A stretch of DNA of 32,000 nt from Delftia acidovorans NBRC 14950 (GTDB taxonomy: Bacteria > Pseudomonadota > Gammaproteobacteria > Burkholderiales > Burkholderiaceae_C). The translations under genes and the position numbers were made by a program. The stretch lies in assembly GCF_001598795.1 (NCBI RefSeq), contig NZ_BCZP01000020.1:1-32000 (forward strand). Direction: 5' to 3'. The notes beneath the pieces are model-generated. The model had not been told where the DNA came from. It searched no databases and worked only from the letters and a program-made list of their open reading frames with translations. Positions 2,637 through 28,974 of the stretch are shown here, one piece after another; positions within the stretch are counted from its first letter, which is position 1; every line of letters starts with the position of its first letter.

Positions 2637-3641
2637 CTAAGCCAGGCGGGTCGAATCCCGCTCGATCAGCTCGAACCCCAGGTCGAACGCCGAGCGCCCG
2701 GCACTGTGGCCCTTGCAGCGTGCCAGCACGAGTTCGGCGGCCAGGCGGCCTATGCCCGGTCCGTCCACATGCACGGTGGTCAGCGACGGCAGCAGGTGGG
2801 CCGCGAAATCGGCATTGCCGAAGCCCGAGACGGCCAGGTCCACGGGCACGCGCAGGCCGCGCGCCTGGGCTTCCACCAAAATGCCATGGGCCAGCATGTC
2901 CGAGCTGCAGACCACGGCCTGCAGATCGGGCTGCTGCGCCAGCAACTGGCCCAGCGCCTGCCGGCCCAGCTCCAGGCTGCCGGGCGCGGACACGGTGACC
3001 GTGGGCACCTCGCGGCCCCAGGCTGCAAGAAAGCCCTCGCGCCGCTGCTGGGCCCGGTGGTCGCTGCCCGTGGCCATGCCAACGCGCTGCAGGCCGCGCG
3101 AGAGGAAATAGCCGGCCAGCGCGCTGCCCACCTTGAGGTGGGAAAAGCCCACCACCATGTCCAGCGGCCGGTCGCTGAAGTCCCAGGTTTCCACCACGGG
3201 AATGCCGGTCCTGCGCAGCCGCTCGCGCGCCTTGTCGGACTGCACCAGGCCCATCATCACAATGCCGTCGGGCTGGCGCCCGATCATGGCGTTGAGTACC
3301 TCCTCCTCCCGCTGCTCGTCGTAGAAGGTCTGTCCCAGCAGCAGCTGATAGCCCTCCTGCGCCAGCGTTGCCGTCAATGACTGCACCGTGGGCAGGAATT
3401 GAGACACTGACAGCGCGGGCACCACGCCCGCCACCATGCGGCTGCGGCGGGACTTGAGCCCGCCGGCCAGCAGATTGGGGATATAGCCCGTGGCCTCCAC
3501 GGCCTGGCGCACGCGCTCGCGCGTCTTCTCCGAAACGATGGAAGGATTGCCCAGGGCGCGCGAGGCCGTGATCAGCGAGACGCCGGCCGCCTCGGCCACG
3601 TCGTGCAGCGTGGCGGGCCTGGGTGGTGTGGGTGTGTTCAT
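2637..3641 (-). CDS. LacI-family transcriptional regulator
   Basis: Starts MNTPTPPRPATLHDVAEAAGVSLITASRALGNP, a LacI-type HTH, followed by a periplasmic-binding-protein-like sugar-binding core. I chose ATG 3641 rather than the track start 3707 because the HTH normally sits at the extreme N-terminus. Confidence 0.9.
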   Translation of the reverse strand: MNTPTPPRPATLHDVAEAAGVSLITASRALGNPSIVSEKTRERVRQAVEATGYIPNLLAGGLKSRRSRMVAGVVPALSVSQFLPTVQSLTATLAQEGYQLLLGQTFYDEQREEEVLNAMIGRQPDGIVMMGLVQSDKARERLRRTGIPVVETWDFSDRPLDMVVGFSHLKVGSALAGYFLSRGLQRVGMATGSDHRAQQRREGFLAAWGREVPTVTVSAPGSLELGRQALGQLLAQQPDLQAVVCSSDMLAHGILVEAQARGLRVPVDLAVSGFGNADFAAHLLPSLTTVHVDGPGIGRLAAELVLARCKGHSAGRSAFDLGFELIERDSTRLA

Positions 3642-3754
3642 GGGCAAGCGCGATCGCGGGCTGGTATCGGGGACGGGCCTGAAGATAGCAGACCGCCCTC
3701 CACGCACGGGCGCCAGGCCTGCCCTGCATCGCAGAAATCGTGATTGACAGCCAA

Positions 3755-3772
3755 AATGACAACGATATCATT
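3755..3772. promoter_or_regulatory. LacI-type palindromic operator, site 1 (AATGACAAC|GATATCATT)
   Basis: 18-bp imperfect palindrome with a central CG, 7/9 half-site symmetry. It is a near-copy of site 2 and lies between the divergent LacI gene and the Bug/enolase genes. Confidence 0.55.
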
Positions 3773-3834
3773 TTGTTGGAAGCGCAAATCCTTGCATCTA
3801 AAAAACGGCATCTGCGCTTTTTCATTTCCACGGA

Positions 3835-3852
3835 AATGACAACGATGTCATT
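3835..3852. promoter_or_regulatory. LacI-type palindromic operator, site 2 (AATGACAAC|GATGTCATT)
   Basis: 18-bp palindrome with a central CG, 8/9 half-site symmetry. It ends 18 bp upstream of the Bug gene ATG (3871), just 5' of the AGGAGA RBS at 3861-3866. Confidence 0.6.
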
Positions 3853-3870
3853 CATAAACCAGGAGACAAG

Positions 3871-4839
3871 ATGAACCACATTCTTCGTGCCATGGCGCTG
3901 GCCCTGGCCGCGCTCACCGCCTTTTCTGCCTCGGCCCAGGCCTGGCCCGACAGGCCCGTCACCCTGGTCGTGCCCTTCCCCGCCGGCGGCTCCACCGACC
4001 AGGTCGCGCGCGCCGTGGCGCCCAGGCTGGGCGAGAAGCTCAGGCAGTCCTTCGTGGTGGAGAACAAGGCCGGCGCCACGGGCACCATCGGCGCGGCCTT
4101 CGTGCAGCGCGCGGCGGCGGACGGGCAGACCTTTCTCGTCACCTCGCTGGGCCCGCTGGTCATCGTGCCCCACCTGATCAAGAACCTGCCCTACGACGCC
4201 CTCAAGGACTTCGACCTGATCACCGTGGCCGTGCAGTCGCCCAACGTGCTGGTCGTGCCTGCCGCCTCGCCGCACAGGAGCGTGGCCGACGTGGTCGCCC
4301 ACCTCAAGGCCCATCCGGGCAAGATGAGCTTTGCCTCAGCCGGCCACGGCTCCAGCGACCACCTGACGGCCGAACTGTTCTGGCAGCAAACGGGCACCCA
4401 GGGCGTGCACATCCCCTACAAGGGCGGCGCACCCGCCCATGCCGACCTGATCGGCGGCCAGGTCGATGCCTCGTTCCAGAACATCAATGCCGTGATCCAG
4501 CACATCCGGGCCGGCAAGATGCGCGCCCTGGCCGTGACCAGCCCGCGCCGCTCGCCCGTGCTGCCGGACCTGCCCACGCTGGCCGAGGCCGGGGTGAAGA
4601 ACGTGGAGGTCGCCTCCTGGCAGGCCATCGTCGCGCCCAAGGGCCTGCCGCCTGCGCTGCGCGACAAGGCCCATGCGGCCTTTGTCGAGGCGCTCAACGA
4701 TCCCCGGGTGCGCGAGCAGTTCGTCTCCATCGGCTACGAGATGGTGGCCGGTACGCCCCAGCAGTTCGCCGAATTCCAGCGCCAGGAATACGCGCGCTGG
4801 AAGACGGTCATCGAGGCCGGAAAGATCAGCATCGACTGA
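3871..4839 (+). CDS. Bug-family (TctC-like) tripartite tricarboxylate transporter substrate-binding protein
   Basis: 322 aa. It has a signal peptide (MNHILRAMALALAALTAFSASAQA) followed by the family hallmark WPDRPVTLVVPFPAGGSTDQVAR. AGGAGA RBS upstream. Confidence 0.9.
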   Translation: MNHILRAMALALAALTAFSASAQAWPDRPVTLVVPFPAGGSTDQVARAVAPRLGEKLRQSFVVENKAGATGTIGAAFVQRAAADGQTFLVTSLGPLVIVPHLIKNLPYDALKDFDLITVAVQSPNVLVVPAASPHRSVADVVAHLKAHPGKMSFASAGHGSSDHLTAELFWQQTGTQGVHIPYKGGAPAHADLIGGQVDASFQNINAVIQHIRAGKMRALAVTSPRRSPVLPDLPTLAEAGVKNVEVASWQAIVAPKGLPPALRDKAHAAFVEALNDPRVREQFVSIGYEMVAGTPQQFAEFQRQEYARWKTVIEAGKISID

Positions 4840-4882
4840 TGCCTGCCCCTGTCCTTTTTCCAACCACCGCACTCCCGCAGCC

Positions 4883-6040
4883 ATGACCTCTTCCGCGCTC
4901 TCCGAAACCACCAGCCAGGACCGCATCCAGTGGATACGCCTGTCGTCCTGCTACCTCCCCCTGGCCCGGCCCATCAGCGATGCCAAGGTGCTCACGGGCC
5001 GCCAAAAGCCCATGACCGAGGTCGCCATGCTGTTCGCCGAGATCCAGACCCGCGACGGCCACCGGGGCCTGGGCCTGAGCTACGCCAAGCGCGCAGGCGG
5101 CCCCGGCCAGTTCGCCCATGCCAGCGAGATCGCCCCCCAACTGCTGGGCGAAGACCCCAGCGACATCGCGCGGCTGTGGACGCGCATGTGCTGGGCCGGC
5201 GCCTCCGTGGGCCGCAGCGGGCTGGCCGTGCAGGCCATCGCGGCCTTCGACGTGGCGCTGTACGACATCAAGGCGCGCCGCGCGGGCCTGCCGCTGTCCA
5301 AGCTGCTGGGCTCGCAGCGCGAATCCGTGCGCTGCTACAACACCTCGGGCGGCTTTCTGCACACGCCGCTGGATGAACTCAAGCGCAACGCCAGCGCCTC
5401 GCTGGAGCGCGGCATTGGCGGCATCAAGCTCAAGGTGGGCCAGCCCGACTGCGCGCTGGACATACGGCGTGTGGAGGCCATGCGCGCCCACCTGGGCGAT
5501 GCCGCGCCCATCATGGTCGATGCCAACCAGCAATGGGACCGCCCCACGGCCCAGCGCATGTGCCGTGTCTTCGAGGAATTCAACCTGGTCTGGATCGAGG
5601 AGCCGCTGGACGCCTACGACCACGAAGGCCATGCCGCGCTGGCCGCGCGCTTCGACACGCCGATCGCCACCGGCGAGATGCTGACCAGCGCCGCCGAGCA
5701 CGGCGATCTCATACGCCACCGCAGCGCCGACTTCCTCATGCCCGACGCGCCGCGCGTGGGCGGCATCACGCCCTTCCTGCAGATCGCCGCCCAGGCCGAA
5801 CTGGCCCACCTGAGCCTGGCGCCCCACTTCGCCATGGAGCTGCATGTGCACCTGGCCGCCACCTGCGCCAACGAGCCCTGGGTGGAACACTTCGACTGGC
5901 TGGAGCCGCTGTTCAACGAACGCCTGGACATCGCCGATGGCCGCATGCTCGTGCCCACGCGCCCCGGCCTGGGACTGAGCCTGAGCGAGCAGGCGCGGCG
6001 CTGGACGCGCGAAAGCGTGGAGTTCGGGGAGCGGGGTTGA
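4883..6040 (+). CDS. Enolase-superfamily enzyme, mandelate racemase subgroup (probable acid-sugar dehydratase)
   Basis: 385 aa from ATG 4883. It has the KxK motif (GGIKLKVG), metal-ligand contexts VDANQQW / WIEEP / ATGEM, and a His-containing APHF...H region. Sits with the LacI gene and the binding-protein gene. Confidence 0.88.
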   Translation: MTSSALSETTSQDRIQWIRLSSCYLPLARPISDAKVLTGRQKPMTEVAMLFAEIQTRDGHRGLGLSYAKRAGGPGQFAHASEIAPQLLGEDPSDIARLWTRMCWAGASVGRSGLAVQAIAAFDVALYDIKARRAGLPLSKLLGSQRESVRCYNTSGGFLHTPLDELKRNASASLERGIGGIKLKVGQPDCALDIRRVEAMRAHLGDAAPIMVDANQQWDRPTAQRMCRVFEEFNLVWIEEPLDAYDHEGHAALAARFDTPIATGEMLTSAAEHGDLIRHRSADFLMPDAPRVGGITPFLQIAAQAELAHLSLAPHFAMELHVHLAATCANEPWVEHFDWLEPLFNERLDIADGRMLVPTRPGLGLSLSEQARRWTRESVEFGERG

Positions 6041-6047
6041 GGGAATT

Positions 6048-6077
6048 GGGGCGTCAGGCCTCAAAGGCTTACGCCCC
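6048..6077 (+). terminator. GC-rich hairpin just downstream of the enolase-family gene (possible terminator)
   Basis: GGGGCGT (6048-6054) pairs with ACGCCCC (6071-6077), with further internal pairing. There is no clear U-tract afterwards, so intrinsic-terminator function is uncertain. Confidence 0.35.
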
Positions 6078-6393
6078 GTACTGCAGAGAAATGGCGCCAT
6101 CAGTCACTGGAGTAGGCCCAGACTCAATGGGACCTACTTTCATTCCAGCGGCCATTCGAGATAGATGTAATTACCTGAAACAAAAAAGAAAAGGTCGGAC
6201 AGAAGATTGTTACGATGCTTGCCGCCAGACAACGATCCGCCCAAATTGGGGATTGCAAACCTGCACGCCAGCCTGCCGATCAAGGGAAAAATGCGAGTGG
6301 TAAGCCCCCGTCCCGATTGCAGCCAGCCCGGACACTCTCCATCACTTTGCGGTATCGACATGAAGATTGGCGTATAGCAACGAAAGGCGAATT

Positions 6394-6915
6394 TTGATCA
6401 AACCAAATTTTCATCGGCTATGGCAGGAGTTTCCTGACCACGTCAGATTCAAGACCATGAAAGATCTATACACAGAACTGGGTGGTGCTGCCGAGAAAAA
6501 TATCTACTTACCAGGCTTCGGTCCCAATGGAAACACATGTGCCAGCCGGTTGAGCGTTGCCTTCAACAAGGCCGGTGCGCCGATCAACGCAGCCTTGGCG
6601 GGTACGGCTGGTGCACGGACATTGGGAACAAAAGACGGTTCTCGCATCATTTATGGCGTAGCAGATTTTCGATCCTATCTTTTGAAATCACTTGGCAAAC
6701 CATCCACTGATGCCGTCAGCCCATATGATGACAAATTTCGCGGCCTGAAAGGCATCATTGCCTTCAGCGTGAACTGGAGTGGCGCCACAGGTCATATCGC
6801 CTTATGGAATGGAGTCCATTATCGTGAACCGGGCTATGACAACTACTCCACTTACACAAATCCGGACAACCCATCCATCAAAACTTCACTTGGTGAATTT
6901 TGGGAGCTCACTTGA
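6394..6915 (+). CDS. tae4: Tae4-family type VI secretion amidase effector (NlpC/P60-like gamma-D-glutamyl-mDAP peptidoglycan amidase) candidate
   Basis: About 173-182 aa. The motifs NTCASRLSVAFN (Cys), ATGHIALWNG (His) and NPDNPS (Asp), with their spacing, match my recollection of the Tae4 Cys-His-Asp architecture. The start is ambiguous: TTG 6394 is preceded by GAAAGG at 6382-6387 and is preferred; TTG 6367 is the track start. The gene has lower GC than its flanks. Confidence 0.7.
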   Translation: MIKPNFHRLWQEFPDHVRFKTMKDLYTELGGAAEKNIYLPGFGPNGNTCASRLSVAFNKAGAPINAALAGTAGARTLGTKDGSRIIYGVADFRSYLLKSLGKPSTDAVSPYDDKFRGLKGIIAFSVNWSGATGHIALWNGVHYREPGYDNYSTYTNPDNPSIKTSLGEFWELT

Positions 6916-7322
6916 TGCGCATGGCTTTGCTGGCATGTGGTCTGGTCATCGCCGGATGCACCCCAGACACGAATCCCGCAGGTGGCACTCGCACGCAAGT
7001 GCAGCGCGACGTTGAAAGCTATGCCATCGCAAGCTGCCTGACCCAGCAGGCCGAGCCCTATCTCAAGGACCAAGGAGATGCCTGGGCATCCGTTGTCGTG
7101 CAGCGCATGCACGGGGATATCGAAGTGCTGGTGGGCATTGCCGAGCAGGTGCAACGGGAGAACACCAAGGGCGATATGGCCGTCATGCGCGACGAAACCC
7201 GTCCCGGGCAGGGCAAGCCATTGCCCGTGCTGCACTGTGGCGAGGTGATCGACCGGCCCGCCGTGCACGCTGCGATTCAAAAGGCGATTGCGGCACTGCG
7301 CCCATCCTACGAATCCAGGTAG
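6915..7322 (+). CDS. Lipoprotein, candidate Tai4-like immunity protein for the adjacent amidase
   Basis: ATG 6915 overlaps the upstream TGA (TGATG). The N-terminus MRMALLACGLVIAGC has a lipobox (IAGC). It is 135 aa, small and periplasm-directed, as expected for immunity to a periplasm-acting amidase. I do not recognise the family from sequence alone. Confidence 0.55.
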   Translation: MRMALLACGLVIAGCTPDTNPAGGTRTQVQRDVESYAIASCLTQQAEPYLKDQGDAWASVVVQRMHGDIEVLVGIAEQVQRENTKGDMAVMRDETRPGQGKPLPVLHCGEVIDRPAVHAAIQKAIAALRPSYESR

Positions 7323-7369
7323 GCCAGGCTGTTTCCCGAAAATCCGGGTTGAGGGTGGGCGACCAGCCC

Positions 7370-8712
<1,343 letters not shown>

Positions 8713-8716
<4 letters not shown>

Positions 8717-10593
8717 GGTGTGTCGGCAGAGGGTGTGGAGGGTGCCAGGGCCAGGCTCAGCGTGAAGACGGCGCCGCCGCCCGGATGGTTGCTGCCCGTC
8801 AGCGTGCCGCCGCATTCACGCACGATGCCGGCCGACAGCGCCAGCCCCAGGCCCAGGCCCACGCCCTCTTCCTTGGTGGTGAAGAACGGCTGGAACAGAT
8901 GGGCCTGCGCCGCTTCGCTCAGGCCCGGGCCGTGGTCGCGCACGGTGACCTGGGCGCGGCCATCGGCCACGGCGCAGGCCAGCTCCAGGCAGGGCGCGGG
9001 CTGGCCGCGCATGGCGTCCAGGGAGTTGTTGATAAGGTTGATCAGCACCTGCTCGATGCGGTTGCGGTCGCACCAAGCCACGGCCTCGGGCACGCCGTCA
9101 TCGCGCAGGATGCGGGCGCCGGTCTCGGCCACGCGCGACTCCAGCACGGCCAGCGCATTGTCCAGCGCATGCGCCAGCGGCACGGCCTGGCTGGCGCCGC
9201 TGGACTTGCGCGCGAAGTTGCGCAGCTGGCCGGTGATGCGGCCCATGCGGTCGGCCAGCTGCGCCATGCGCTCCAGGTTCACGCGCGTGGTTTCGGTATC
9301 GCCGCGCTCCAGAAAGCGTTGGCTGTTGCCGGCCAAGGTGCGCAGCGCCGTCAGCGGCTGATTGAGTTCATGGGCCACGCCCGTGGACAGCTGGCCTATC
9401 ACGGCCAGCTTGCCGGCCTGCACCAGTTCGTCCTGGGCGGCGCGCAGCGTGGCCTCGGCGTGGGTGCGCTCGGCCACTTCGGCCTGCAGCGCCTCGTTGG
9501 CGGCCGACAGGTCGGCCGTGCGCTGCTCCACTTTGCGCTCGAGCTCATCGTGCGCGGCCTGCAGCGCCTCGCGCGCGGCCAGCCGGTCGCGCAGGTGGCG
9601 GCGGCGCTCGTTGACCATCATGGCCAGCAGCAGCACAAAGGCCGCACCCACGGCCGCGGCCAGCGCGCGGCTCTGGGCCAGCTGGTCGACCTGCTCCAGG
9701 TGCGAGAGCACGGTGATCGTCCAGGGCGTGCCAGGCAGCTGGCGCGACTGGGCCAGGAAGCGGCCGCTGACCGGGTAGACCGAGCCCGGCGATTCCTCGC
9801 CATGGCGGGCAATGCGCACCAGGCGCGCGCCCTGGCCCAGGTCGCGCAGCACTTGCAGGCCCAGGGGCTCCAGCGCGCGGCGGTTGTACTGGCGCGTGTG
9901 GTCGAAGGCGGCGCGCGTGCCCTCGTCCAGCGTGCGCAAGGTGGTGAATTTCCAGTCGGAGACCGTGCCCAGGATGACGACGCCGTTCTCGTCGCCCACC
10001 AGCACGGGCGCCTCCACCGTGGACCACGATTGCTCCAGCTGGTCCAGGCTGACCTTGACCACGGCCACGCCCAGCGTGTGGGTGTCGTCGCCCAGGGTGG
10101 AGGCCAGGTAGTAGCCGGGCTCGCCGCGCGTGGTACCAATGCCGAAGAAGCGCGCGCTGCCCGTGGCCATGGCGGTGCGGTAGTAGGGGCGAAAGCTCAG
10201 GTCCTCGCCCATGTAGCTGTCGGTGCGCCGCCAGTTGCTGGAGGCCACGACGTGGCCGCGCGCATCGACCAGGTAGGCGGTCAGCGTGCCCGCACGGTCG
10301 TTGAGCTGCTCCAGGTAGGCGTTGACGCGGTTGGTGAGCTGCTCGTCGCCGGGCTCGGCCAGCAGCCTTTGCACATTGCCTTCCAGTGCCAGCACGTCGG
10401 GCAGGAAGGCGTATTTGCCGATCTCGCGCTGCAGGCTGGCGCCGTACAGCTCCAGCCGGTGCATGCCCGTGGCACGCAGATCGGCGATGCCCAGCCGCTG
10501 CGCCAGCAGGTACGCACCCCAGCCGCTCAGCCCGCTCAGGGCAAGCCACAGCAAAAGCAGGATGAGCTGGCGCAGGGGGCGGCGGGCGGGCAT
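8713..10593 (-). CDS. dctB: C4-dicarboxylate sensor histidine kinase, DctB-like
   Basis: 626 aa from ATG 10593. It has an N-terminal TM segment, a DctB-like periplasmic sensor (YAFLPDVLA...ASSNW...FRPYY...FFGIGTT), an H-box (HELNQPL) and an ATPase domain. The track ORF start at 10779 is rejected as an upstream extension. Confidence 0.85.
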
Positions 10594-12188: not shown

Positions 12189-12217
12189 CCGAACGATGGA
12201 ACGCCTGCATCGTTCGG
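12189..12217. promoter_or_regulatory. Perfect 10-bp inverted repeat CCGAACGATG-N9-CATCGTTCGG; candidate enhancer (UAS) for DctD
   Basis: Read directly from the sequence. It lies about 90-125 bp upstream of the -24 element relative to dctA, the usual position for NtrC-family activator sites. An AT-rich segment (about 12140-12175) lies in between. The function is inference. Confidence 0.35.
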
Positions 12218-12273
12218 AAAACCGGATGGCCGGGCCTGCCGCCTCCGGCCCTCCCGGCCGGCGCTATCATCCG

Positions 12274-12300
12274 CACCGGCCCCCTGTCACGGGGCCGGTG
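12274..12300. repeat. GC-rich perfect 10-bp stem hairpin (CACCGGCCCC-N7-GGGGCCGGTG) in an intergenic region
   Basis: Read directly. There is no U-tract on either strand, so it is not a canonical intrinsic terminator. Confidence 0.4.
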
Positions 12301-12495
12301 CTTCAAAACACCTCCATCACACAGCGGCACAACCTCTTCGAAAGCGAGGTCTGTCAATGCAATTCACGGATCAATGCAATCGCAAAGGCCAGTGAATTCG
12401 CTTTGCAATGGAGCATCAAGCATGAACACCGTTTTCCTCGCACTCGCCTGCGCGCCCTCTGCTGGCGCCGCCCCTTCCACACGGAGGGCCAAGGC

Positions 12496-12873
12496 ATGAA
12501 CCCCACCACCCAGCCCAGTCCCGACACGGACGGCCACACCACGCGGCAGCTGTCCAATGCCCTCACCCAGGTAGACCATCTCGTGCAGCAAGGCTGTGCA
12601 GAGATTTCCGCCATCGCCCAGCTCGCCCTGGCATGGCTGGAGACGCCCAAGGGCCATCGCCACATGGACGTGGTGGCCCGCGCCCTGCAAAGCATCCGCG
12701 ACAGCGCCGAGACACTGGCCGACTACGCCGGCACCGAGGCCCAGGCCATGGGCTGCGGGTTTGAAGACGCGGCCGAGATGCGCCGTGCCGAAGCGGCCGA
12801 GGCAGCCGCCAAAGCCATGGCGCAACTGTTTGAACGCCGGCCGGTGCCCGGGCAGGACGGCAGCAGCGGCTGA
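12496..12873 (+). CDS. Hypothetical protein (125 aa, predicted helical, Ala/Glu-rich C-terminus)
   Basis: ATG 12496 is preceded by GGAGGG (12483-12488). It has no recognisable family. Coding status rests on the RBS and on a plausible, non-repetitive protein composition. Confidence 0.45.
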   Translation: MNPTTQPSPDTDGHTTRQLSNALTQVDHLVQQGCAEISAIAQLALAWLETPKGHRHMDVVARALQSIRDSAETLADYAGTEAQAMGCGFEDAAEMRRAEAAEAAAKAMAQLFERRPVPGQDGSSG

Positions 12874-14751: not shown

Positions 14752-15765
14752 ATGACCGGACGTTTTGTCCCCTTCAGATCAATGACGCCACTTTCTGACC
14801 CCCTGCCTTTGGCGCCTGGCCCCGGGCTGCCCATCTCGGCCGTCGAACGCGAGACCGGACTTGCCAAGGACACCCTGCGTGTCTGGGAAAGACGCTACGG
14901 CTTTCCAAGGCCTGAACGGGATTCGGCAGGCGATCGCCGCTACCCGGCGGACCAGGTTCGACAACTGACCCTGATCCGGCGGCTCATGGATACGGGACTG
15001 CGCCCCAGCAAGCTGATGGGCGTGGATCTGGACGGCCTGCAGGCGCTGCTGGCCCGCGCCGACACCTCGCCGAGCGTGGATTTGTCCAGGACAAATTCAG
15101 AGAATGCAGCAGACTCTGACCGCTTCGCACCCATGCTCGACGCCATTGCCGCACATGATCCCGCCCAGCTCAGGCATTGCCTTAGCCTGGCCCAGTCGCG
15201 CATGGGCCTGGCCGGTTTCGTGACCACGCTCGTGGCCCCGCTGACCGCAGCGGTCGGCGAATTCTGGGCACAGGGGCGTTTTGAGGTGTTCGAAGAGCAC
15301 CTGTACACCGAGGTGCTCACCGGCGTCTTGAGGCAGGCAATCGCCTCGCTCGCCCCCCCTTCCCCGCCGTCCACGCCCAAGGTGTTGCTGACCACGCTGC
15401 CGCAGGAGATGCATGGGCTGGGACTGCTCATGGTCGAAGCCCTGCTGGCCCTGGAAGGCTGCAACTGCGTATCGCTGGGCACCCAGACGCCCATCGGCGA
15501 CGTGGCACAGGCCGCGCGGGCGCATCGCGCCGACATCGTGGGGCTGAGCTTCAGCAGCTCGCACAACGGAGCGATGGCGCAGGCTTGCCTGGGCGAGCTG
15601 CGCAGCCACCTGCCGCCGTCCATCGAGTTGTGGGCCGGTGGAGCTTGCCCGGCGCTTTATTCCAGCCCGGTCGCGGGCATGACGCCGGTGCGCCATCTCA
15701 CGGATCTGCAACCGCTGGTCGCCCGATGGCGGCAGACGACAAGAACATCAAGGACATACGCATGA
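14752..15765 (+). CDS. MerR-family transcriptional regulator with a C-terminal cobalamin-binding domain (CarH/LitR-type light-responsive regulator)
   Basis: It has an N-terminal MerR HTH (ISAVERETGLAKDTLRVWERRYGFPRPERDSAGDRRY). The helical bundle carries W-x9-EH (WAQGRFEVFEEH). The B12-binding Rossmann region carries ExHxxG (QEMHGLG), followed by GLSFSS and WAGG. An alternative start is ATG 14782. Confidence 0.85.
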   Translation: MTGRFVPFRSMTPLSDPLPLAPGPGLPISAVERETGLAKDTLRVWERRYGFPRPERDSAGDRRYPADQVRQLTLIRRLMDTGLRPSKLMGVDLDGLQALLARADTSPSVDLSRTNSENAADSDRFAPMLDAIAAHDPAQLRHCLSLAQSRMGLAGFVTTLVAPLTAAVGEFWAQGRFEVFEEHLYTEVLTGVLRQAIASLAPPSPPSTPKVLLTTLPQEMHGLGLLMVEALLALEGCNCVSLGTQTPIGDVAQAARAHRADIVGLSFSSSHNGAMAQACLGELRSHLPPSIELWAGGACPALYSSPVAGMTPVRHLTDLQPLVARWRQTTRTSRTYA

Positions 15766-16358
15766 ACTTTCCCGCCCCCCGCACCATCTTCATCGCCAGG
15801 CGGCGCACCCTGCTGGCAACGGCCCTTGGCGCCGGCCTGCTGGCCAGCGGTTGCGCCAGCATGCGCCCGCCAGGCTCGGTCACGCCCGTCTCACCGTTCG
15901 ACCTGCAGCGCTACCAGGGCCTGTGGTACGAACTGGCACGGCTGGACCATGGTTTCGAGCGGGGCATGACCGATGTGACCGCCGAGTACACGCCGCAGGC
16001 AGACGGCAGCGTGAAGGTGGTGAACCGGGGGTTTTCCGTGCCCCGGGGCAAATGGCAGCGTGCCGTCGGCAAGGCCTTGTTCACGGGCAAGCCGGACACG
16101 GCTTCGCTCAAGGTCTCCTTCTTCGGCCCGTTCTACGGCGGCTACCATGTGGCCGCCCTGGACCCTGACTACCGCTGGGCGCTGGTCCTCGGGCCGGACA
16201 TGCAGTACTGCTGGATACTGGCCAGAGAGCCGAAACTGCCCCCGCAGACGCTGCAATCCATCGTCGCCAAGGCCGCGCAACTGGGCGTCGATACCGGCGC
16301 GCTGATCTGGGTCAGCCATGAGCGGCACCAGGAAGCGCACAGCCAGGAGGCCTTGTGA
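15762..16358 (+). CDS. blc: Bacterial lipocalin (Blc-like outer-membrane lipoprotein)
   Basis: 198 aa. It has a lipobox (LLASGC) and the lipocalin signature [26 protein letters not shown] 15762 overlaps the regulator gene's stop (ATGA). Confidence 0.85.
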
Positions 16359-17425
16359 ACGGTGCGCCCCCCGTCGCGGTGATCGGCGCGGGAATGGCAG
16401 GTTTGGCATGTGCACAGCTGCTGGCCGATGCTGGCTGCCGCGTGGATATCTTCGAGAAAAGCCGAGGCCCATCCGGGCGCATGAGCACGCGGCGCGCGCA
16501 GGATCCGCAGGGTGCGTGGCAGTGCGATCACGGCGCTCCATCGTTTGCGGCCCAGGACCCGGAGTTTGTGCAGGAGGTGCGCCAGTGGGAGCAGCACGGC
16601 GTTGTCGCCGCCTGGCGTCCGCGCGAAGTGCGCCTGCAGGGCAAAGACGTGGTGCCAGCAGATGGGGGCCCCGACCGCTGGGTGGGCGTGCCGCGCATGA
16701 CCTCTCCCGCAGCGTTTCTTGTCCAGCGGCTTGCACAACAGGGGCATGGCGCACGGCTGCACCTGCAAACCACGGTTCAGCAGTTGCAGTACGAATCTGC
16801 CTGCTGGACTGTGCACTGTGCCGAACACGGGCAGATCGGATCGGAATACTGCGCCCTGGTTTTGGCAGTGCCTGCACCGCAGGCGGCAGCCTTGCTGGGG
16901 CCGGTCTCGCCCTATGCGTCGGCACTGGCTGCCAGCGCGCGCATGCAGCCTTGCTGGGTGGCCATGCTGCGCACCGACGCCCCCCTGCCGCTGGACTGGG
17001 ATGCGGCAGAAATCACGGATGGCCCGCTGTGCTGGGTGGCACGCGACAGCGCCAAGCCAGGACGACAGGGGCCGCAAGTGCCGCAAGGACCTCAGACCTG
17101 GGTGCTGCATGCCAGTGCACGGTGGAGCCAGGATCACATCGAGTCGGACGCCGAATCCGTGGCCCGGCAACTGCTGCAGGCATTCGAGGCCCTGGCCGGG
17201 CCACTGTCCGGCTCTCTGTACGACTCTCTGCCAGGCGGCCTGCGCGTCACTGCCCACCGCTGGCGCTATGCGCTGCCGGCGCCGCACCTGGTCAACCGCT
17301 GCTGGTGGGACGCACCTGCGGGCCTGGGCCTGTGCGGCGACTGGATGTGCGGCGCAGGCGTCGAAGGCGCCTGGCTCAGCGGACGGGCGCTGGCCCGGCG
17401 CGCCCTGGCCACGCTGACGCGCTGA
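16355..17425 (+). CDS. NAD(P)/FAD-dependent oxidoreductase (renalase-like/amine-oxidase-fold)
   Basis: 356 aa. It has an N-terminal dinucleotide-binding motif ([37 protein letters not shown]). The GTG 16355 start overlaps the blc stop (GTGA). Confidence 0.8.
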
Positions 17426-17445
17426 ACGGCAGGAACGCCCGCGCC

Positions 17446-17625
17446 ATGCACAAGAAGCCCCACCTGCCCTCCAAGCTGTGTGCGTGCTGCGGTCTTGCGT
17501 TCACATGGCGCAAAAAATGGGCACGTGATTGGGACGAGGTCAAATACTGCTCGCAGCGCTGCCGCAACGCGCGACTGCCGCGTGATCCCACTCCCCCATC
17601 TGCAGGCCGTCAGCCAAGGCGCTGA
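17446..17625 (+). CDS. DUF2256-family small zinc-ribbon protein
   Basis: 59 aa ([40 protein letters not shown]) with CxxC...CxxxC. It matches my recollection of DUF2256, a family commonly found next to photolyase/light-response genes. The track hides it inside the long ORF 16318..17625. Confidence 0.7.
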
Positions 17626-23797: not shown

Positions 23798-23812
23798 GTG
23801 AGTTTAAGTCAC
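23798..23812. promoter_or_regulatory. LysR-type T-N11-A dyad (GTGA-GTTTAAG-TCAC) between the LysR and RLP genes
   Basis: TGAGTTTAAGTCA fits T-N11-A. An octamer, TCACAGCC, recurs at 23809-23816 and 23885-23892. Confidence 0.4.
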
Positions 23813-23894
23813 AGCCTACCGAAATCATATCGTTTTACACAAGGAAAGATGGCTCTTATCGTTCAGTCCGGTTTCAAAATTAACTCACAGCCCG

Positions 23895-25169
23895 ATGACC
23901 AAGAACACCACCCGTGCCGAATTCACCGCGCGCTACTTCGTCGAAAGCTCGGTCTCGTCCGAGAAGGTTGCGCAGGTCATCGCCGGCGAACAGTCCAGCG
24001 GCACCTTCCTCTCGTTGCCCGGCGAGACGGACGAGCTCAAGGAACGCTCTCGCGCCCGTGTCACCCGCATCGAGCCGCTCGCCCCTGCGCTTGAGCCCAC
24101 GCTGCCCAGCGCCTATGTGGATCGCCAACCGCACGGCGGGGTGTTCCATCGGGCCGAGATCGAGATCGCGTTCCCGGAGGCCAACGTCGGAGCCAACCTG
24201 TCCAGCCTGCTGGCCACGGTGGCGGGCAACCTGTACGAACTGGGCGAGGTCACCGGTCTGCGCCTGCTGGACCTGGACCTGTCGCCCGGCTACGCCGCCC
24301 AATTCGCCGGCCCGGCCTTTGGGGTGTCCGGCACCCGGCGGATGGCCGGGGTCCACGGCCGGCCGCTGATCGGCACCATCATCAAGCCCAGTATCGGCCT
24401 CACGCCTGGCCAGACTGCCGAACTGGTCGACTCGCTGTGCGCAGCCGGCATCGACTTCATCAAGGACGATGAGCTGATCGCCGATCCACCCTATGCGCCG
24501 TTCGACGAGCGCCTGCGGGCCGTCATGCCGGTGCTGCAGCGCCATGCAGACCGCCTGGGCCGCATGCCGATGTACGCAATCAACATCTCCGGCTCCATCG
24601 ACGAGATGCTGCGCCGCCACGATGCCGTGCTCGCAGCAGGCGGCACCTGCGTGATGGTGAGCGTCAACTGGGTCGGCTTCGCCGGGGTGGAACACCTGCG
24701 CCGCCACGCCCAGTTGCCGATCCACGGCCACCGCAACGGCTGGGGCGCGTTCACACGGCACCAGGGGCTGGGCTTCTCGTTCCAGGCTTACCAGAAGCTG
24801 TGGCGCCTGGCGGGGGTGGACCACCTGCACGTCAATGGCCTGCGCAGCAAGTTCTGGGAGCCGGACGACTCGGTCATCGCCTCGGCCCGCGCCTGCCTGT
24901 CGCCCTGGGCCGGACACCAGCCGCTGATGCCGGTGTTCTCGTCGGGCCAGTGGGCGGGCCAGGCGCCGGACCTGTACGCGGCTCTGGGTTCGGTGGACCT
25001 CATGCACCTGGCCGGCGGCGGCATCATCGGCCACCCCGACGGCATCGCCGCCGGTATGGCCAGCATGCGTGAAGGCTGGGAGGCGGCGGTGGCGAGCATC
25101 GGCCTGGACGCCTACGCCAAAACGCACCCCGCACTCCAGCGGGCAATGGCGCACTTTGCCGGGCGGTGA
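23895..25169 (+). CDS. RuBisCO-like protein (form IV RuBisCO large-subunit homologue)
   Basis: 424 aa. It has RuBisCO large-chain motifs GTIIKPSIGL (equivalent to the KPKLG region), IDFIKDDE (carbamylated Lys plus metal ligands), IHGHRNG (HR pair), HLHVNG, FSSGQW and LAGGGIIGHP. There is no small-subunit or cbb gene nearby. Confidence 0.9.
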   Translation: MTKNTTRAEFTARYFVESSVSSEKVAQVIAGEQSSGTFLSLPGETDELKERSRARVTRIEPLAPALEPTLPSAYVDRQPHGGVFHRAEIEIAFPEANVGANLSSLLATVAGNLYELGEVTGLRLLDLDLSPGYAAQFAGPAFGVSGTRRMAGVHGRPLIGTIIKPSIGLTPGQTAELVDSLCAAGIDFIKDDELIADPPYAPFDERLRAVMPVLQRHADRLGRMPMYAINISGSIDEMLRRHDAVLAAGGTCVMVSVNWVGFAGVEHLRRHAQLPIHGHRNGWGAFTRHQGLGFSFQAYQKLWRLAGVDHLHVNGLRSKFWEPDDSVIASARACLSPWAGHQPLMPVFSSGQWAGQAPDLYAALGSVDLMHLAGGGIIGHPDGIAAGMASMREGWEAAVASIGLDAYAKTHPALQRAMAHFAGR

Positions 25170-25172
25170 ACG

Positions 25173-26579
25173 ATGACTTCGACTGACAAGGCCCAAGGGC
25201 TGAAGCTCGCGTTCTACGGCGACGACTTCACCGGCTCCACCGATGCGCTGGAGGTCCTGGCTTTCGGCGGGCTGCGCTGCGCGCTCTTCCTGTCGGTGCC
25301 GAAGTCGGCGCAGATGGCTGCGTTGGGCGGCTTCGACGCCATCGGCGTGGCCGGCGCGAGCCGGGCGATGACGCCGCAGGAGATGGATGCGCAGCTGCCC
25401 GACGTATTGAGTGGGCTCGCCGCCCTGGCGCCGCAGATCGTGCACTACAAGGTGTGCTCCACCTTCGACAGCGCGCCAGCGGTGGGCAACATCGGCCGGG
25501 TCATCGAACTGTCTCGGGCGGCCTTCCCGCAGCCCGTGGTGCCGATCGTCGCCAGCACGCCGGCACTGGGTCGCTACTGCCTGTTTGGCCACCTGTTTGC
25601 GCGGTCGGGCACCGACGGCGAGGTGTACCGCATCGACCGCCACCCGATCATGAGCGTGCACCCGGTGACGCCGATGCAGGAGTCCGACGTGGCCCGGCAC
25701 CTGGAAAAGCAGGCGCCATTGGCCATCGGCAACGTGCCGCTGACCTGGCTCGACACCCAGTCGCCGGCCGAGCTGGCGCAACACATCCGCGCCATGGCGC
25801 CAGCCCGGCAGGCGGTGGTGATCGACGGCCTGAGCGCCGGCCACCTGACCACCACCGGCGACTGCCTTCAGCAGATGGCTGCGGGGCTAAAAGCGCCCCT
25901 CTTTGTGGTCGGATCGTCCGGTGTCGAGTACGCGTTGACGCAATCCTGGCAGGGAGAAACGGCTGCGTCGGGCGACCGCTACGGCAGCTTCGGCGCCGTC
26001 GACCAGGTGCTGGTCGTCTCGGGCAGCGCCTCGAAGCTCAGTGCGATGCAGATCGAGGCGGCGGTGGACGCCGGCTTCCGCGAGGTGGCGATCGATGTCG
26101 AGGCGCTGGCCATCGGCCCGGACACCGCCGCCGCCGAGGCGCGCCTCGTGAGCGAGGTGGTCAGTGCGCTGGCCAGCGGCGCCAGCGTGGTGATGCACAC
26201 CGCACGCGGCCCGTCCGATCCGCGCGTGGCCCGCTTGACCCAGGGCCTGCAGATGCGGGGCGCCAGCCTGGAGCAGGCGCGCCACCAGAGCGGGCGCCTG
26301 GTCAGTGAACGGCTGGGCATCGCGGTGGACGCCATCGTTCGCCGCCACCGGCTGCGTCGCCTGGTGCTCTCGGGGGGCGACACGTCCAGCCGCATCACAC
26401 AGGCCCTCGGCCCCGACGCCCTGGAGATCCGCGCCCGCCTGTCGCCCGGCGCACCGCTGTGTGCCGTCCTGTCCACACAGTCCCACCTGAGCGGGCTGGA
26501 GCTGGCCCTCAAGGGCGGCCAGATGGGCGCTCCCGACTACTTCGTCCGCGCGCTGCGGGGCAGCGCCGGGGACGCCTGA
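25173..26579 (+). CDS. DUF1537-family four-carbon/acid-sugar kinase (OtnK/OiaK-like)
   Basis: 468 aa. The N-terminal motif LAFYGDDFTGSTDALE is typical of DUF1537 (YgbK-like) kinases, and the C-terminal nucleotide-binding domain has LSGGDTS. It starts 4 nt after the RLP gene's stop. Confidence 0.88.
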   Translation: MTSTDKAQGLKLAFYGDDFTGSTDALEVLAFGGLRCALFLSVPKSAQMAALGGFDAIGVAGASRAMTPQEMDAQLPDVLSGLAALAPQIVHYKVCSTFDSAPAVGNIGRVIELSRAAFPQPVVPIVASTPALGRYCLFGHLFARSGTDGEVYRIDRHPIMSVHPVTPMQESDVARHLEKQAPLAIGNVPLTWLDTQSPAELAQHIRAMAPARQAVVIDGLSAGHLTTTGDCLQQMAAGLKAPLFVVGSSGVEYALTQSWQGETAASGDRYGSFGAVDQVLVVSGSASKLSAMQIEAAVDAGFREVAIDVEALAIGPDTAAAEARLVSEVVSALASGASVVMHTARGPSDPRVARLTQGLQMRGASLEQARHQSGRLVSERLGIAVDAIVRRHRLRRLVLSGGDTSSRITQALGPDALEIRARLSPGAPLCAVLSTQSHLSGLELALKGGQMGAPDYFVRALRGSAGDA

Positions 26580-26619
26580 TGCATTGAACCATTCACACAA
26601 AACCACCAGGAGACCTGTC

Positions 26620-27393
26620 TTGCCATCCACCCACACTCCACACCGCGTCGCGGTCGTCACCGGCGGCGCCATGGGCATCGGCGCCGAAGTCTGCCGGCGT
26701 CTGGCCGCCGCAGGCTTTGCCATCGTCGTCGCCGACCGCGACCAGACGGCCGCCGAGACCACCGCCGCGGACCTGCGCGCCGACGGTGCGACCGCCGAGG
26801 CCCAGGCCATCGACGTTGGCGACGCCGCATCGGTCGACAGCGCCTTCGCCGCCATCGAGCAGCGCCATGGACGCTGTGACGTGCTGGTCAACTCGGCCGG
26901 CATCGCCAAGGTCCATCCCTTCCTGGAGTTTCCGGACGACAACTTCGCGGCCACCATGGCCGTCAACGTCAACGGCACCTTCCTGTGCAGCCAGCGCGCA
27001 GCGCGCCTGATGGTGCGCAACCATTGGGGCCGTATCGTCAACATCGCCTCGGTGGCAGGCATGCGCGCCGTCGGCACCGGGCGGACTGCCTACGGCACCT
27101 CCAAGGGCGCCGTGATCGCGCTGACCCGCCAAATGGCAGTCGAGCTGGCCGAAAAGGGCGTGACGGCCAACGCCGTGGCGCCCGGTCCGGTGGACACACC
27201 GATGACCCGTGTGCTGCACACCGCGCAATTCCGTCGAGAGTACGAGAACGCGATCCCGATGAACCGATACGGCACCGTGGGCGAAATCGCAGCGGCCGTG
27301 ATGTACCTGGTGTCCGAGGACGCGGGGTTCGTGACCGGCGTCACCCTGCCGGTCGATGGCGGCTTCCTCGCCTCTGGCGCCCGGGGCATCTGA
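26620..27393 (+). CDS. SDR-family oxidoreductase (classical, NAD(P)-dependent)
   Basis: It has TGGAMGIG, NSAG, and S...YGTSK (Y-x3-K). The preferred start is TTG 26620, preceded by AGGAGA (26608-26613). The track start is TTG 26584. Confidence 0.85.
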   Translation: MPSTHTPHRVAVVTGGAMGIGAEVCRRLAAAGFAIVVADRDQTAAETTAADLRADGATAEAQAIDVGDAASVDSAFAAIEQRHGRCDVLVNSAGIAKVHPFLEFPDDNFAATMAVNVNGTFLCSQRAARLMVRNHWGRIVNIASVAGMRAVGTGRTAYGTSKGAVIALTRQMAVELAEKGVTANAVAPGPVDTPMTRVLHTAQFRREYENAIPMNRYGTVGEIAAAVMYLVSEDAGFVTGVTLPVDGGFLASGARGI

Positions 27394-27426
27394 ACCATCA
27401 CTTTTTCCACCCTGAGAGGAGACTCC

Positions 27427-28437
27427 ATGAACAAGCGCAACTTCATCGCGGGCGCTGCGCTCGCACTCGCCACCCTGGCCGCCGTTCCGGCCATGGCCCA
27501 GCAGGTCAAGGCCCGAATGGGCCATGTCTTCGCTGCCAACAGCACCATGGACCAGGCAGCGCAGGAATTCGCCAGGCTGGTGGGCGAACGCACCAAGGGC
27601 CGGATCGGCATCATGGTCTTCCCGGCCAACCAACTGGGCGGCGAGCAGGCACAGGCGCGCGAACTGTCGCGCGGCTCGTTGGAGCTGGCACTGCTGAACC
27701 CCGGCTCGCTGGCCGGCCTGAACCCGCTGCTCGACATCCACTACCTGCCCTACATCGCATCCGACTTCAAGCAGGTAGATGCCATCTTCTACAACCCCAA
27801 GGGCGTTCTGCAGACGACGCTGCGCGAGACACTGGCCAAGCAGAACATCGAGACGCTGGGCTTCTTCGAGCTCGAGTTCCGCGCTGTGACCAACTCCAGC
27901 CGTCCGGTGGAGAAGCCGGCTGACCTGAAGGGCCTGAAGCTGCGGGTTCCAGGTTCGGCTGCGATCAAGGGCTTTTTCGAGGAAACCGGCGCCCAGGTGG
28001 TTGTGATGCCGTTCCCCGAGCTGTTCACGGCGCTTCAGCAAAAGACGGTGGACGGCCAGGACAACGGCGCCAGCATCACCTACGAATCGCGCCTGTTCGA
28101 GACACAGAAGTACATGACGCTGACCAACCACGTCTACGCCATGGGTACGGTGGCATCGAGCTCGAAGTTCTGGTCGGCGCTGTCCGAAGCCGAAAAGAAG
28201 ATCCTGACCGACACCGCCGCCGAGGTGACCAGCAAGCAGATCGAAAAGAGCCGCCAGCTCAACGCAGACTTCCTGAAAAAGATCGAGGCCGGTGGAATCA
28301 AGATCGTCCGGCCATCGGCGCAGGCCATGGCCGAGTTCGAGAAGGTGGGCCAGGGCCTGTGGGGAAAGCTGTCGGGCACCTACGGTGCTGAACGCATCGC
28401 TGCTCTGCGCCAAGAGGCTGCGGCTGCTCGCAAATAA
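27427..28437 (+). CDS. TRAP transporter substrate-binding protein (DctP family)
   Basis: 336 aa. It has a signal peptide (AALALATLAAVPAMA) and a DctP-family core with a conserved Arg context (ELEFRAVTN) expected to bind a carboxylate. GAGAGGAG RBS. Confidence 0.9.
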   Translation: MNKRNFIAGAALALATLAAVPAMAQQVKARMGHVFAANSTMDQAAQEFARLVGERTKGRIGIMVFPANQLGGEQAQARELSRGSLELALLNPGSLAGLNPLLDIHYLPYIASDFKQVDAIFYNPKGVLQTTLRETLAKQNIETLGFFELEFRAVTNSSRPVEKPADLKGLKLRVPGSAAIKGFFEETGAQVVVMPFPELFTALQQKTVDGQDNGASITYESRLFETQKYMTLTNHVYAMGTVASSSKFWSALSEAEKKILTDTAAEVTSKQIEKSRQLNADFLKKIEAGGIKIVRPSAQAMAEFEKVGQGLWGKLSGTYGAERIAALRQEAAAARK

Positions 28438-28452
28438 GTGAAGGAGGGGCCC

Positions 28453-28974
28453 ATGTCCGTCAGCAAACGCGCCAGCACGTGGCTGTTTTCGGTGGAACGC
28501 CACGCGTTCCTGGCCGAGAAGTGGATTTGCATCATCTCGCTTGTCGCCATGCTGGTGGGCATCTGCTTCAGCGTGGCGGTGAGGTACTTCAGTCTCCACC
28601 TGCCCGACGCCGGTGAAATCGCCATCTACGCCATGGCGCCACTCACTTTCGTCGGTGCAGCAATGTGTACCTGCACAGGGACGCACATCGCGGTGGACAT
28701 CATCGACCAGGTCAAGCGCCCGTGGGTTCGCCGGACCGGTCGGGTGTTCACGGCGCTCACCATGATCGTCTTCGGCGCAGTCTATTTCTGGACAGCACTG
28801 GGGTTCTTTCAAAGCGCGTTGAGCTCCGGCGAGCGAGGCCTCGACATGGGCATTCCTGTCGCGATTCCCACTTTCTTCTTCCCGCTCGGCATGGCGCTGG
28901 TGGTGCTGCATGCCCTGGCCGAGCTGATCCGTGCCGCAACCAATCAACCATCGGTTGCCAAGGAACACCCATGA
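28453..28974 (+). CDS. TRAP transporter small permease (DctQ family)
   Basis: 173 aa with four hydrophobic segments. ATG 28453 is preceded by AAGGAGG (28441-28447). Confidence 0.85.
   Translation: MSVSKRASTWLFSVERHAFLAEKWICIISLVAMLVGICFSVAVRYFSLHLPDAGEIAIYAMAPLTFVGAAMCTCTGTHIAVDIIDQVKRPWVRRTGRVFTALTMIVFGAVYFWTALGFFQSALSSGERGLDMGIPVAIPTFFFPLGMALVVLHALAELIRAATNQPSVAKEHP

Follow-up and report, generated by a model that had tools for sequence, protein, structure and literature searches.

What are two genes of foreign composition doing between a metabolic gene and dctD in a Delftia genome, and do they form a weapon together with its antidote? The question is raised by positions 6041-7369 of a 32,000-nt stretch of Delftia acidovorans NBRC 14950 (assembly GCF_001598795.1, contig NZ_BCZP01000020.1, positions 1 to 32,000 of the forward strand), the whole of which is referred to here as the window. 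An earlier reading of the letters (the original prediction) had proposed that this islet, conspicuous for its low guanine-plus-cytosine (GC) content, carries an orphan Tae4-like amidase effector of a type VI secretion system (T6SS) and a coupled lipoprotein that confers immunity, and that the pair was acquired horizontally. We consider it likely that the two genes form a functional effector-immunity module of the Tae4/Tai4 type that stands alone, the effector of which would be exported by a T6SS while the lipoprotein would protect kin.

The first gene encodes a Tae4-family amidase

The islet holds two open reading frames (ORFs) on the same strand, the effector gene (6394..6915, plus strand) being followed by the lipoprotein gene. 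The effector product scored 67.7 bits with the profile of Pfam family PF14113 (Tae4), for which the cutoff is 27 (E = 1.3e-18), and the same family was carried by all of the best 120 effector homologs. Searches against the sequences of solved structures returned the Tae4 chains 4J30, 4HFF, 4JUR and 4HFK at E values of about 1e-14, with alignments spanning nearly the full length. An AlphaFold model of the protein, with a predicted local distance difference test (pLDDT) score of 86, has the papain-like NlpC/P60 fold of solved Tae4 enzymes; its top 8 PDB matches were Tae4 chains, at template-modelling (TM) scores of 0.79-0.86 on target length, and Serratia Ssp1 came next. The assignment to Tae4 made from the letters thus holds by family profile (well above threshold), by sequence similarity to solved Tae4 proteins and by matching fold. 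This identity is already known, RefSeq naming the exact protein 'T6SS effector amidase Tae4 family protein [Delftia]'.

The position of the start codon differs among available gene calls; the NCBI annotation gives a protein of 152 amino acids (aa), whereas the longest ORF (6367-6915) and the JGI calls give 182 aa. Nearly all of the best 120 homologs are 173 aa long, the effectors of 6 other loci begin with M-x-K-P at the position that matches a TTG codon at 6394, and a putative ribosome-binding site, GAAAGG (6382..6387, plus strand), lies 6 nt before that codon. On account of the homolog length, the M-x-K-P start and the upstream GAAAGG, the true product is taken to be 173 aa, beginning at TTG 6394. 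The original prediction had described an effector ORF of roughly 175 aa, a 135-aa ORF and the TGATG overlap between them, all of which stand; the corrected start, which is new here, is the part that changes. The N-terminus predicted from TTG 6394, MIKPNFHRLWQEFPDH, has no hydrophobic leader, and no signal peptide is recognized in the protein.

Putative catalytic residues were matched by HMMER alignment to Salmonella Tae4, and their invariance was read from an alignment of 36 homologs. Cys49 (codon 6538..6540, plus strand) aligns with Cys44 of the Salmonella enzyme, His134 (6793..6795, plus strand) with His126, and Asp149, within the motif GYDNY (6838..6840, plus strand), with Asp137; each of the three was invariant in the 36 homologs. 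In Salmonella Tae4, mutation of any one of Cys44, His126 and Asp137 abolishes toxicity (PMC3695027), and Cys49, His134 and Asp149 are accordingly the residues predicted to make up the catalytic triad of the Delftia effector. The cysteine (NTCASRLS) and histidine (GHIALWNG) motifs had been picked out correctly in the original prediction. The aspartic acid had been placed in NPDNP, a residue (D158, 6865-6867) that is not conserved in the family, and the reassignment of the catalytic aspartic acid to D149, based on this alignment, is new here.

The second gene encodes a candidate immunity lipoprotein of Tai4 fold

The lipoprotein gene (6915..7322, plus strand) encodes 135 aa, and its start overlaps the effector stop in the sequence TGATG (6913..6917, plus strand), which couples the two genes; an overlap of the same type is found in two of the comparison loci, which are designated here by the letter L (L094 and L096). 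The predicted signal peptide ends in the lipobox I-A-G-C15, and a signal peptide with a lipobox of the form (A/V)-G-C15 is kept in at least 90% of the members of the lipoprotein family. Like Tai4 and Rap2 proteins, the product is therefore predicted, from signal peptide and lipobox, to be exported to the periplasm. A profile search of 1.84 billion representative proteins recovered a compact family of 136 lipoproteins. The best representative-library match of this profile, P0241 (276 aa), was matched in two stretches, which suggests a tandem duplication or a fusion of two immunity domains.

The structural model of the lipoprotein reached a pLDDT of 87 overall and of about 96 in the mature part. 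When the model was compared with the PDB by Foldseek, the top 12 matches consisted only of Rap2a, Rap2b and the Tai4 proteins of Salmonella and Enterobacter, all with probabilities of at least 0.99 and TM scores of 0.60-0.72 on target length; a clean break followed, the next match having a probability of 0.2. The best match was Rap2a (E = 4.7e-3, TM 0.70 on target length), a five-helix subunit in which an extended loop joins alpha3 to alpha4 and a disulfide links alpha1 to alpha4 (PMC3852654). Two cysteines, C41 and C108, are invariant in 54 lipoprotein sequences and sit in model helices 28-42 and 104-111, the first and fourth of the mature domain; the hallmark disulfides of the solved proteins are C48-C108 in Salmonella Tai4 (PMC3695027) and C42-C102 in Rap2a (PMC3852654). 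The modelled five-helix fold extends to the loop, in that a hairpin at residues 90-102 takes the place of the extended alpha3-alpha4 loop, which contacts the effector in solved complexes (PMC3852654).

A homolog of the lipoprotein is encoded directly downstream of Tae4 in all 6 of the loci compared from other lineages. Given structural matches that are exclusively to Tai4 and Rap2 proteins, the conserved cysteine pair and the loop of alpha3-alpha4 type, the modelled lipoprotein is assigned as a Tai4-fold immunity protein, belonging to a sequence family outside the profile libraries. This fold-based assignment of the family is new here, and it bears out the immunity candidate of the original prediction.

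Delivery by a T6SS encoded elsewhere is plausible

Several results weigh against a T6SS-delivered Tae4/Tai4 pair. No T6SS, Hcp, VgrG, PAAR or adaptor gene is present in the 32 kb, so that the effector is an orphan, as had been stated from the letters, and no T6SS gene was found within 10 kb of the effector homolog in 5 other lineages. With none in the window and none in these lineages, genetic linkage to a T6SS is absent for the whole subfamily. The effector is also atypical in its cysteines: a cysteine pair around the catalytic aspartic acid is conserved in, and needed for the toxicity of, the Salmonella, Enterobacter and Serratia proteins (PMC3695027, PMC3852654), and this flanking pair is missing from the Delftia protein, Cys49 being the sole conserved cysteine of the subfamily and residues 135-173 containing no cysteine at all. 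A Tae4 subfamily that, by alignment, does without the disulfide turn is a new observation. A sigma-70-like promoter was looked for in the spacer 6041-6393, 5' of the effector gene, and none was found. Finally, every sequence-profile test of the lipoprotein for Tai4 failed; the protein had no match in Pfam, where the original prediction had suggested searching with a Tai4 profile, or in NCBIfam, 10 distant members of its family run against Pfam gave no Tai4 match, and PDB sequences were matched neither by the single sequence nor by a 54-sequence profile.

Other observations are consistent with export. Of a T6SS effector that acts in the periplasm one expects a leaderless toxin accompanied by an immunity protein located in the periplasm (PMC3695027), and this is what the islet contains, a leaderless effector with a predicted periplasmic immunity gene overlapping its stop. 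One T6SS cluster is present in every D. acidovorans genome compared, including that of strain SPH-1 (PMC4572682), and a protein of SPH-1 clusters with the window effector at 90% identity. In D. tsuruhatensis, a T6SS was found in all 15 genomes analysed, and T6SS genes belong to the core gene set (PMC9045143). On this evidence, which comes from the literature on the species, it is plausible that a distant T6SS delivers the effector.

We propose that the module would work as follows. The leaderless, 173-aa effector, a predicted papain-like NlpC/P60 cysteine amidase acting through Cys49, His134 and Asp149, would be exported by the single T6SS of the species, encoded elsewhere in the chromosome. 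Its most likely mode of carriage would be as Hcp cargo, since the protein is small and consists of a single domain. Injection would place it in the periplasm of adjacent Gram-negative cells, where it would be expected, by analogy with characterised Tae4 enzymes, to cut the gamma-D-glutamyl-meso-diaminopimelic acid bond of peptidoglycan. The lipoprotein made from the coupled gene, presumably anchored in the periplasm, would bind and block amidase delivered by sister cells. The module as a whole is compositionally foreign to its host and occupies a fixed slot, the content of which turns over within Delftia.

Comparison with characterised effector-immunity pairs

The closest characterised relatives are the Tae4-Tai4 pairs of Salmonella Typhimurium (STM0277/STM0278; PDB 4J30, 4J32, 4HFF) and Enterobacter cloacae (4HFK, 4HFL), whose effectors belong to the same Pfam family as the Delftia effector at 28-30% identity, share its fold (TM 0.79-0.86) and have Cys, His and Asp at aligned positions. 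These effectors too are leaderless, with the immunity gene directly after the effector gene, and their Tai4 proteins have the same helical fold as the Delftia lipoprotein, with a cysteine pair in the first and fourth helices (the bond being predicted in the Delftia protein). The Delftia effector lacks the Cys135/Cys139-type pair of canonical Tae4 around the catalytic aspartic acid, and the Delftia immunity protein is a predicted lipoprotein, whereas known Tai4 is a Sec-cleaved soluble protein (PMC3695027). The Delftia lipoprotein is only 14-17% identical to Tai4 and has no Pfam match. Canonical Tae4-Tai4 pairs lie inside a T6SS cluster, in contrast to the stand-alone Delftia pair, and the Tae4 orthologue of P. 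fluorescens lies downstream of hcp (PMC7970981).

The Serratia marcescens effectors Ssp1 and Ssp2, with Rap1a and Rap2a (PDB 4BI3, 4BI4, 3ZIB, 4B6I), provide both the best structural match of the lipoprotein (Rap2a) and the next match of the effector after Tae4 (Ssp1). The Ssp proteins match the Delftia effector more weakly (TM about 0.6, 20% identity), their genes lie inside a T6SS cluster, unlike the Delftia pair, and the Rap proteins are soluble periplasmic dimers rather than predicted lipoproteins. The Agrobacterium tumefaciens Tae4-Tai4 pair (PDB 6IJF) represents a non-enteric member of the family, its sequence match (E = 5e-4) being much more distant than those to the enterobacterial Tae4 proteins.

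The islet occupies a variable slot in Delftia genomes

The region between the stop of the enolase-superfamily (MR_MLE) gene at 6040 and the dctD stop at 7370 (6041-7369) has a GC content of 54.9%, the smallest value reached by any 1329-nt segment across the 32 kb; segments of this size that lie outside the islet have a mean of 66.8% (sd 3.0) and a minimum of 60.6%. By part, the spacer 5' of the effector gene (6041..6393) has 52.7% GC, the effector gene 49.0% and the lipoprotein gene 62.7%, and GC at third codon positions (GC3) is 0.50 in the effector gene, against 0.85-0.95 in the genes of the genome. A low-GC islet with two coupled genes between a metabolic gene and dctD was thus described accurately from the letters, down to the hand counts of 23/60 G+C at 6361-6420 and 43/60 at 5101-5160.

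D. tsuruhatensis (L088) has the pair in this slot as well, between the MR_MLE gene and dctD, and so does the divergent strain Delftia sp. PS-11 (L086). The insertion is not strain-specific, the slot being occupied in at least three Delftia lineages. When the window was compared with PS-11, composition-corrected divergence at 4-fold sites was 1.89 in the effector gene and 1.80 in the lipoprotein gene, against 0.24-0.48 in the flanking genes, figures that for the islet rest on 69 and 40 sites near saturation and to the excess of which compositional disequilibrium could contribute. On this discrepancy, simple vertical inheritance of the pair since the Delftia ancestor was rejected. The comparison with D. 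tsuruhatensis gave the opposite picture, with 1 nucleotide difference in the 519 nt of the effector gene, where about 12 would be expected from the flanking genes, which differ by about 2.3%. A local peak of single-nucleotide polymorphisms, with a 9-nt insertion or deletion, covers 7001-7500, a range that takes in the 3' half of the lipoprotein gene as well as the 3' end of dctD. The effector is 88% identical and the immunity protein 62% identical between the window and PS-11, and across genera these values are 65-88% and 27-63%, respectively; the immunity protein appears, from these identities, to evolve much faster than the effector.

Within D. acidovorans the slot was found in two further states, the variable region starting at about 6044-6065 in both of the strains concerned. 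In L099 (GCA_976954815.1; seen on 4 contigs), window positions 6044-6894, comprising spacer and Tae4, are replaced by a 163-nt GC-rich filler (L099 5920-6082) that includes a (GGGCC)n run; what is left of the pair is the final 21 nt of Tae4 and an intact immunity gene, an orphan-immunity state. In L093 (GCA_022393415.1), a 6.7-kb segment (3347-10055) stands in place of window positions 6065-7062. The segment encodes an Rhs protein of 1530 aa, which starts with a Sec-like N-terminus, carries DUF6531 and RHS repeats, and ends in a CHAP-like domain that scored 24.8 bits, slightly below the cutoff of 26. After it come a small lipobox ORF, a fragment of 89 aa that represents an orphan Rhs tip, and DNA of 28-32% GC; the adjoining Tai4-like gene is truncated, its first 49 codons having been lost. 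A full pair, an immunity gene by itself and an Rhs cassette are thus alternative contents of one slot within one species, a three-state polymorphism that is new here. These three states resemble the orphan-immunity genes and effector-cassette hot spots known from T6SS and Rhs loci, as does the Rhs cassette of L093 with its own small lipobox ORF; unlike those hot spots, the Delftia slot is accompanied by no vgrG, hcp, PAAR or integrase gene.

Outside Delftia, the same bicistron was found in unrelated neighbourhoods in 5 other lineages, including Massilia, Halioxenophilus and Pokkaliibacter, and the GC content of the effector gene stays at 38-53% whatever that of the host (40-68%). Together these data point to a two-gene module that is mobile and sits at a variable site. 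A horizontal origin of the module, as originally proposed, is supported by its composition, its scattered occurrence across genera and a silent-site divergence discordant with that of the flanks; what has to be given up is a recent, strain-specific insertion, in view of the slot being filled in at least three Delftia lineages. The original prediction had itself reasoned that the same low-GC segment throughout the genus would argue against recent acquisition, and with PS-11 and D. tsuruhatensis both carrying it, this is in part what is seen.

A broader reading can be offered tentatively, as one that we hold to be possible but would not favour. The stretch from the MR_MLE gene to dctD would be a hot spot of recombination, at which toxin-immunity cassettes directed at peptidoglycan are swapped in the absence of a mobility gene; the cassettes in question are Tae4/Tai4-like alleles that are deeply diverged, the remnant with immunity only and the Rhs cassette with its CHAP-like tip. 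The bicistron of disulfide-less Tae4 and Tai4-fold lipoprotein would be a self-contained, distinct subfamily that spreads between classes of Proteobacteria, always away from T6SS clusters; it would be loaded by a route of its own and would not require DsbA of the target cell.

Alternative explanations of the pair

The pair might instead be kept mainly as a defence, the lipoprotein guarding against foreign Tae4 while the resident effector is silent or loaded onto no T6SS. This is what the orphan immunity gene of L099 would suggest, after the loss of 6044-6894, and it would fit the unusual TTG start of the effector gene, its want of a recognisable promoter and the lack of any linked T6SS gene in the 32 kb. 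The window effector is, however, full length with its predicted triad intact, and in comparison with PS-11 it shows a nonsynonymous divergence (dN) of only 0.079 where silent sites are near saturation, from which we conclude that the protein is maintained by strong purifying selection. Between D. acidovorans and D. tsuruhatensis, too, it hardly varies, and the truncated gene of L093 shows that immunity is not universally kept. Persistence for the sake of the immunity gene, which the original prediction had raised as an alternative, is therefore a state that occurs in L099 but not in the window, and as an account of the module studied here we regard it as improbable.

Less probable again is that the pair is no T6SS weapon at all, the Tae4-like protein being a wall hydrolase that serves, with its periplasmic inhibitor, in turnover of the cell's own wall, or that is released by some other means such as outer-membrane vesicles. 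The subfamily never lies beside T6SS genes in the 6 contexts examined and lacks the disulfide turn of canonical Tae4, and D. acidovorans is described as producing vesicle-filled nanopods (PMC3110197). The enzyme, though, has no signal peptide and hence no path to the wall through Sec or Tat, while export is predicted for its inhibitor, a topology that fits protection against an incoming toxin; moreover, a patchy, compositionally foreign pair that is lost, or replaced by another toxin cassette, within one species is unlike a housekeeping function.

That the low-GC stretch is non-coding or decaying, its ORFs being chance or pseudogenes, could draw on the low effector GC3 and on two automated gene calls (L002, L003) that skipped the effector, but it is refuted beyond reasonable doubt, because both loci have DNA 100% identical to that of the window (the calls were missed through an artefact of the gene caller, and the effector loss is only apparent) and because both proteins have hundreds of homologs of conserved length and confident models matching a solved effector-immunity pair.

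A functional Tae4/Tai4-type module, exported by a T6SS, remains the preferred explanation.

Boundaries of the islet and its surroundings

A locus identical to the window is found at NCBI (D. acidovorans, GCA_000741825.1), where the pair carries the locus tags DR66_4381 and DR66_4382, and the Pfam assignments of the flanking genes were made on it. The left flank is the MR_MLE gene (4883..6040, plus strand; MR_MLE_N and MR_MLE_C), the last gene of a LacI-TctC-MR_MLE block that is kept in at least 80 other Burkholderiales and Pseudomonas loci; none of these 80 loci from other genera has Tae4 or dctD beside the MR_MLE gene, and they consequently offer no empty site for comparison. On the right, a short spacer (7323..7369) separates the lipoprotein gene from the stop of the convergent dctD gene and forms the islet edge, homology between PS-11 and the window restarting at the dctD stop codon. 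The dctD gene (7370..8716, minus strand) encodes a sigma-54 response regulator (Response_reg, Sigma54_activat, HTH_8), beyond which lie dctB and a gene for a dctA-type carrier.

The upstream spacer, 6041-6393, does not align with that of PS-11, and no element upstream of the module is conserved across hosts. The small ORFs of the spacer gave no Pfam match. One of them, a 73-aa minus-strand ORF (6140-6361) called in the NCBI record, has no family match and is probably spurious, the spacer not being conserved in PS-11.

A 10-nt direct repeat, GGGTTGAGGG, occurs at 6034 and 7346 and brackets the islet. It was considered as a target-site duplication and rejected; the repeat is absent or incomplete in 3 related Delftia loci (L086, L088, L093), a 10-nt repeat of this kind turns up in about 1% of comparable pairs of segments, and it was therefore counted as chance. 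No tRNA and no Rfam family was detected in the window, and among its annotated genes there is no integrase and no T6SS gene. The islet thus lacks the integrase, tRNA target and conserved flanking repeats of an integrase-mediated genomic island, and the statement in the original prediction that no integrase, tRNA or flanking direct repeats could be found was sound.

The remaining genes of the window encode regulators, transporters and catabolic enzymes. At 23808-28971, a protein resembling the large chain of RuBisCO is encoded by the side of a two-domain protein of sugar-acid kinase type (SBD_N/NBD_C), a short-chain dehydrogenase and the TRAP (tripartite ATP-independent periplasmic) transporter subunits DctP and DctQ, with a divergent LysR regulator alongside; this looks like a catabolic cluster built around a RuBisCO-like protein, not one for carbon fixation. 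At 14752-17625, a lipocalin, a flavoprotein of amine-oxidase type and an ORF ending in DUF2256 come after a MerR-type regulator that has a B12-binding domain; the group may constitute a light- or B12-responsive cluster. Between the dctA-type carrier gene and a chemoreceptor gene, a slightly GC-poor stretch (12196-12873, about 61%) contains a 125-aa ORF (12496-12873) with no Pfam match, which is present in L093 and L099 too.

Implications

The current understanding of T6SS effectors is unchanged by these findings. What they provide is a putative function, assigned through a modelled fold, for about 136 representative 'hypothetical' lipoproteins that are covered by no profile library and that would be immunity proteins of the Tai4 type. 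They also show that Tae4 proteins of a subfamily without the canonical disulfide turn circulate with their immunity genes in two-gene modules that stand alone. In Delftia, a genus of emerging opportunists and of biocontrol strains, they point to one chromosomal site at which interbacterial weapons vary by strain, a variation that could affect the compatibility of strains with one another.

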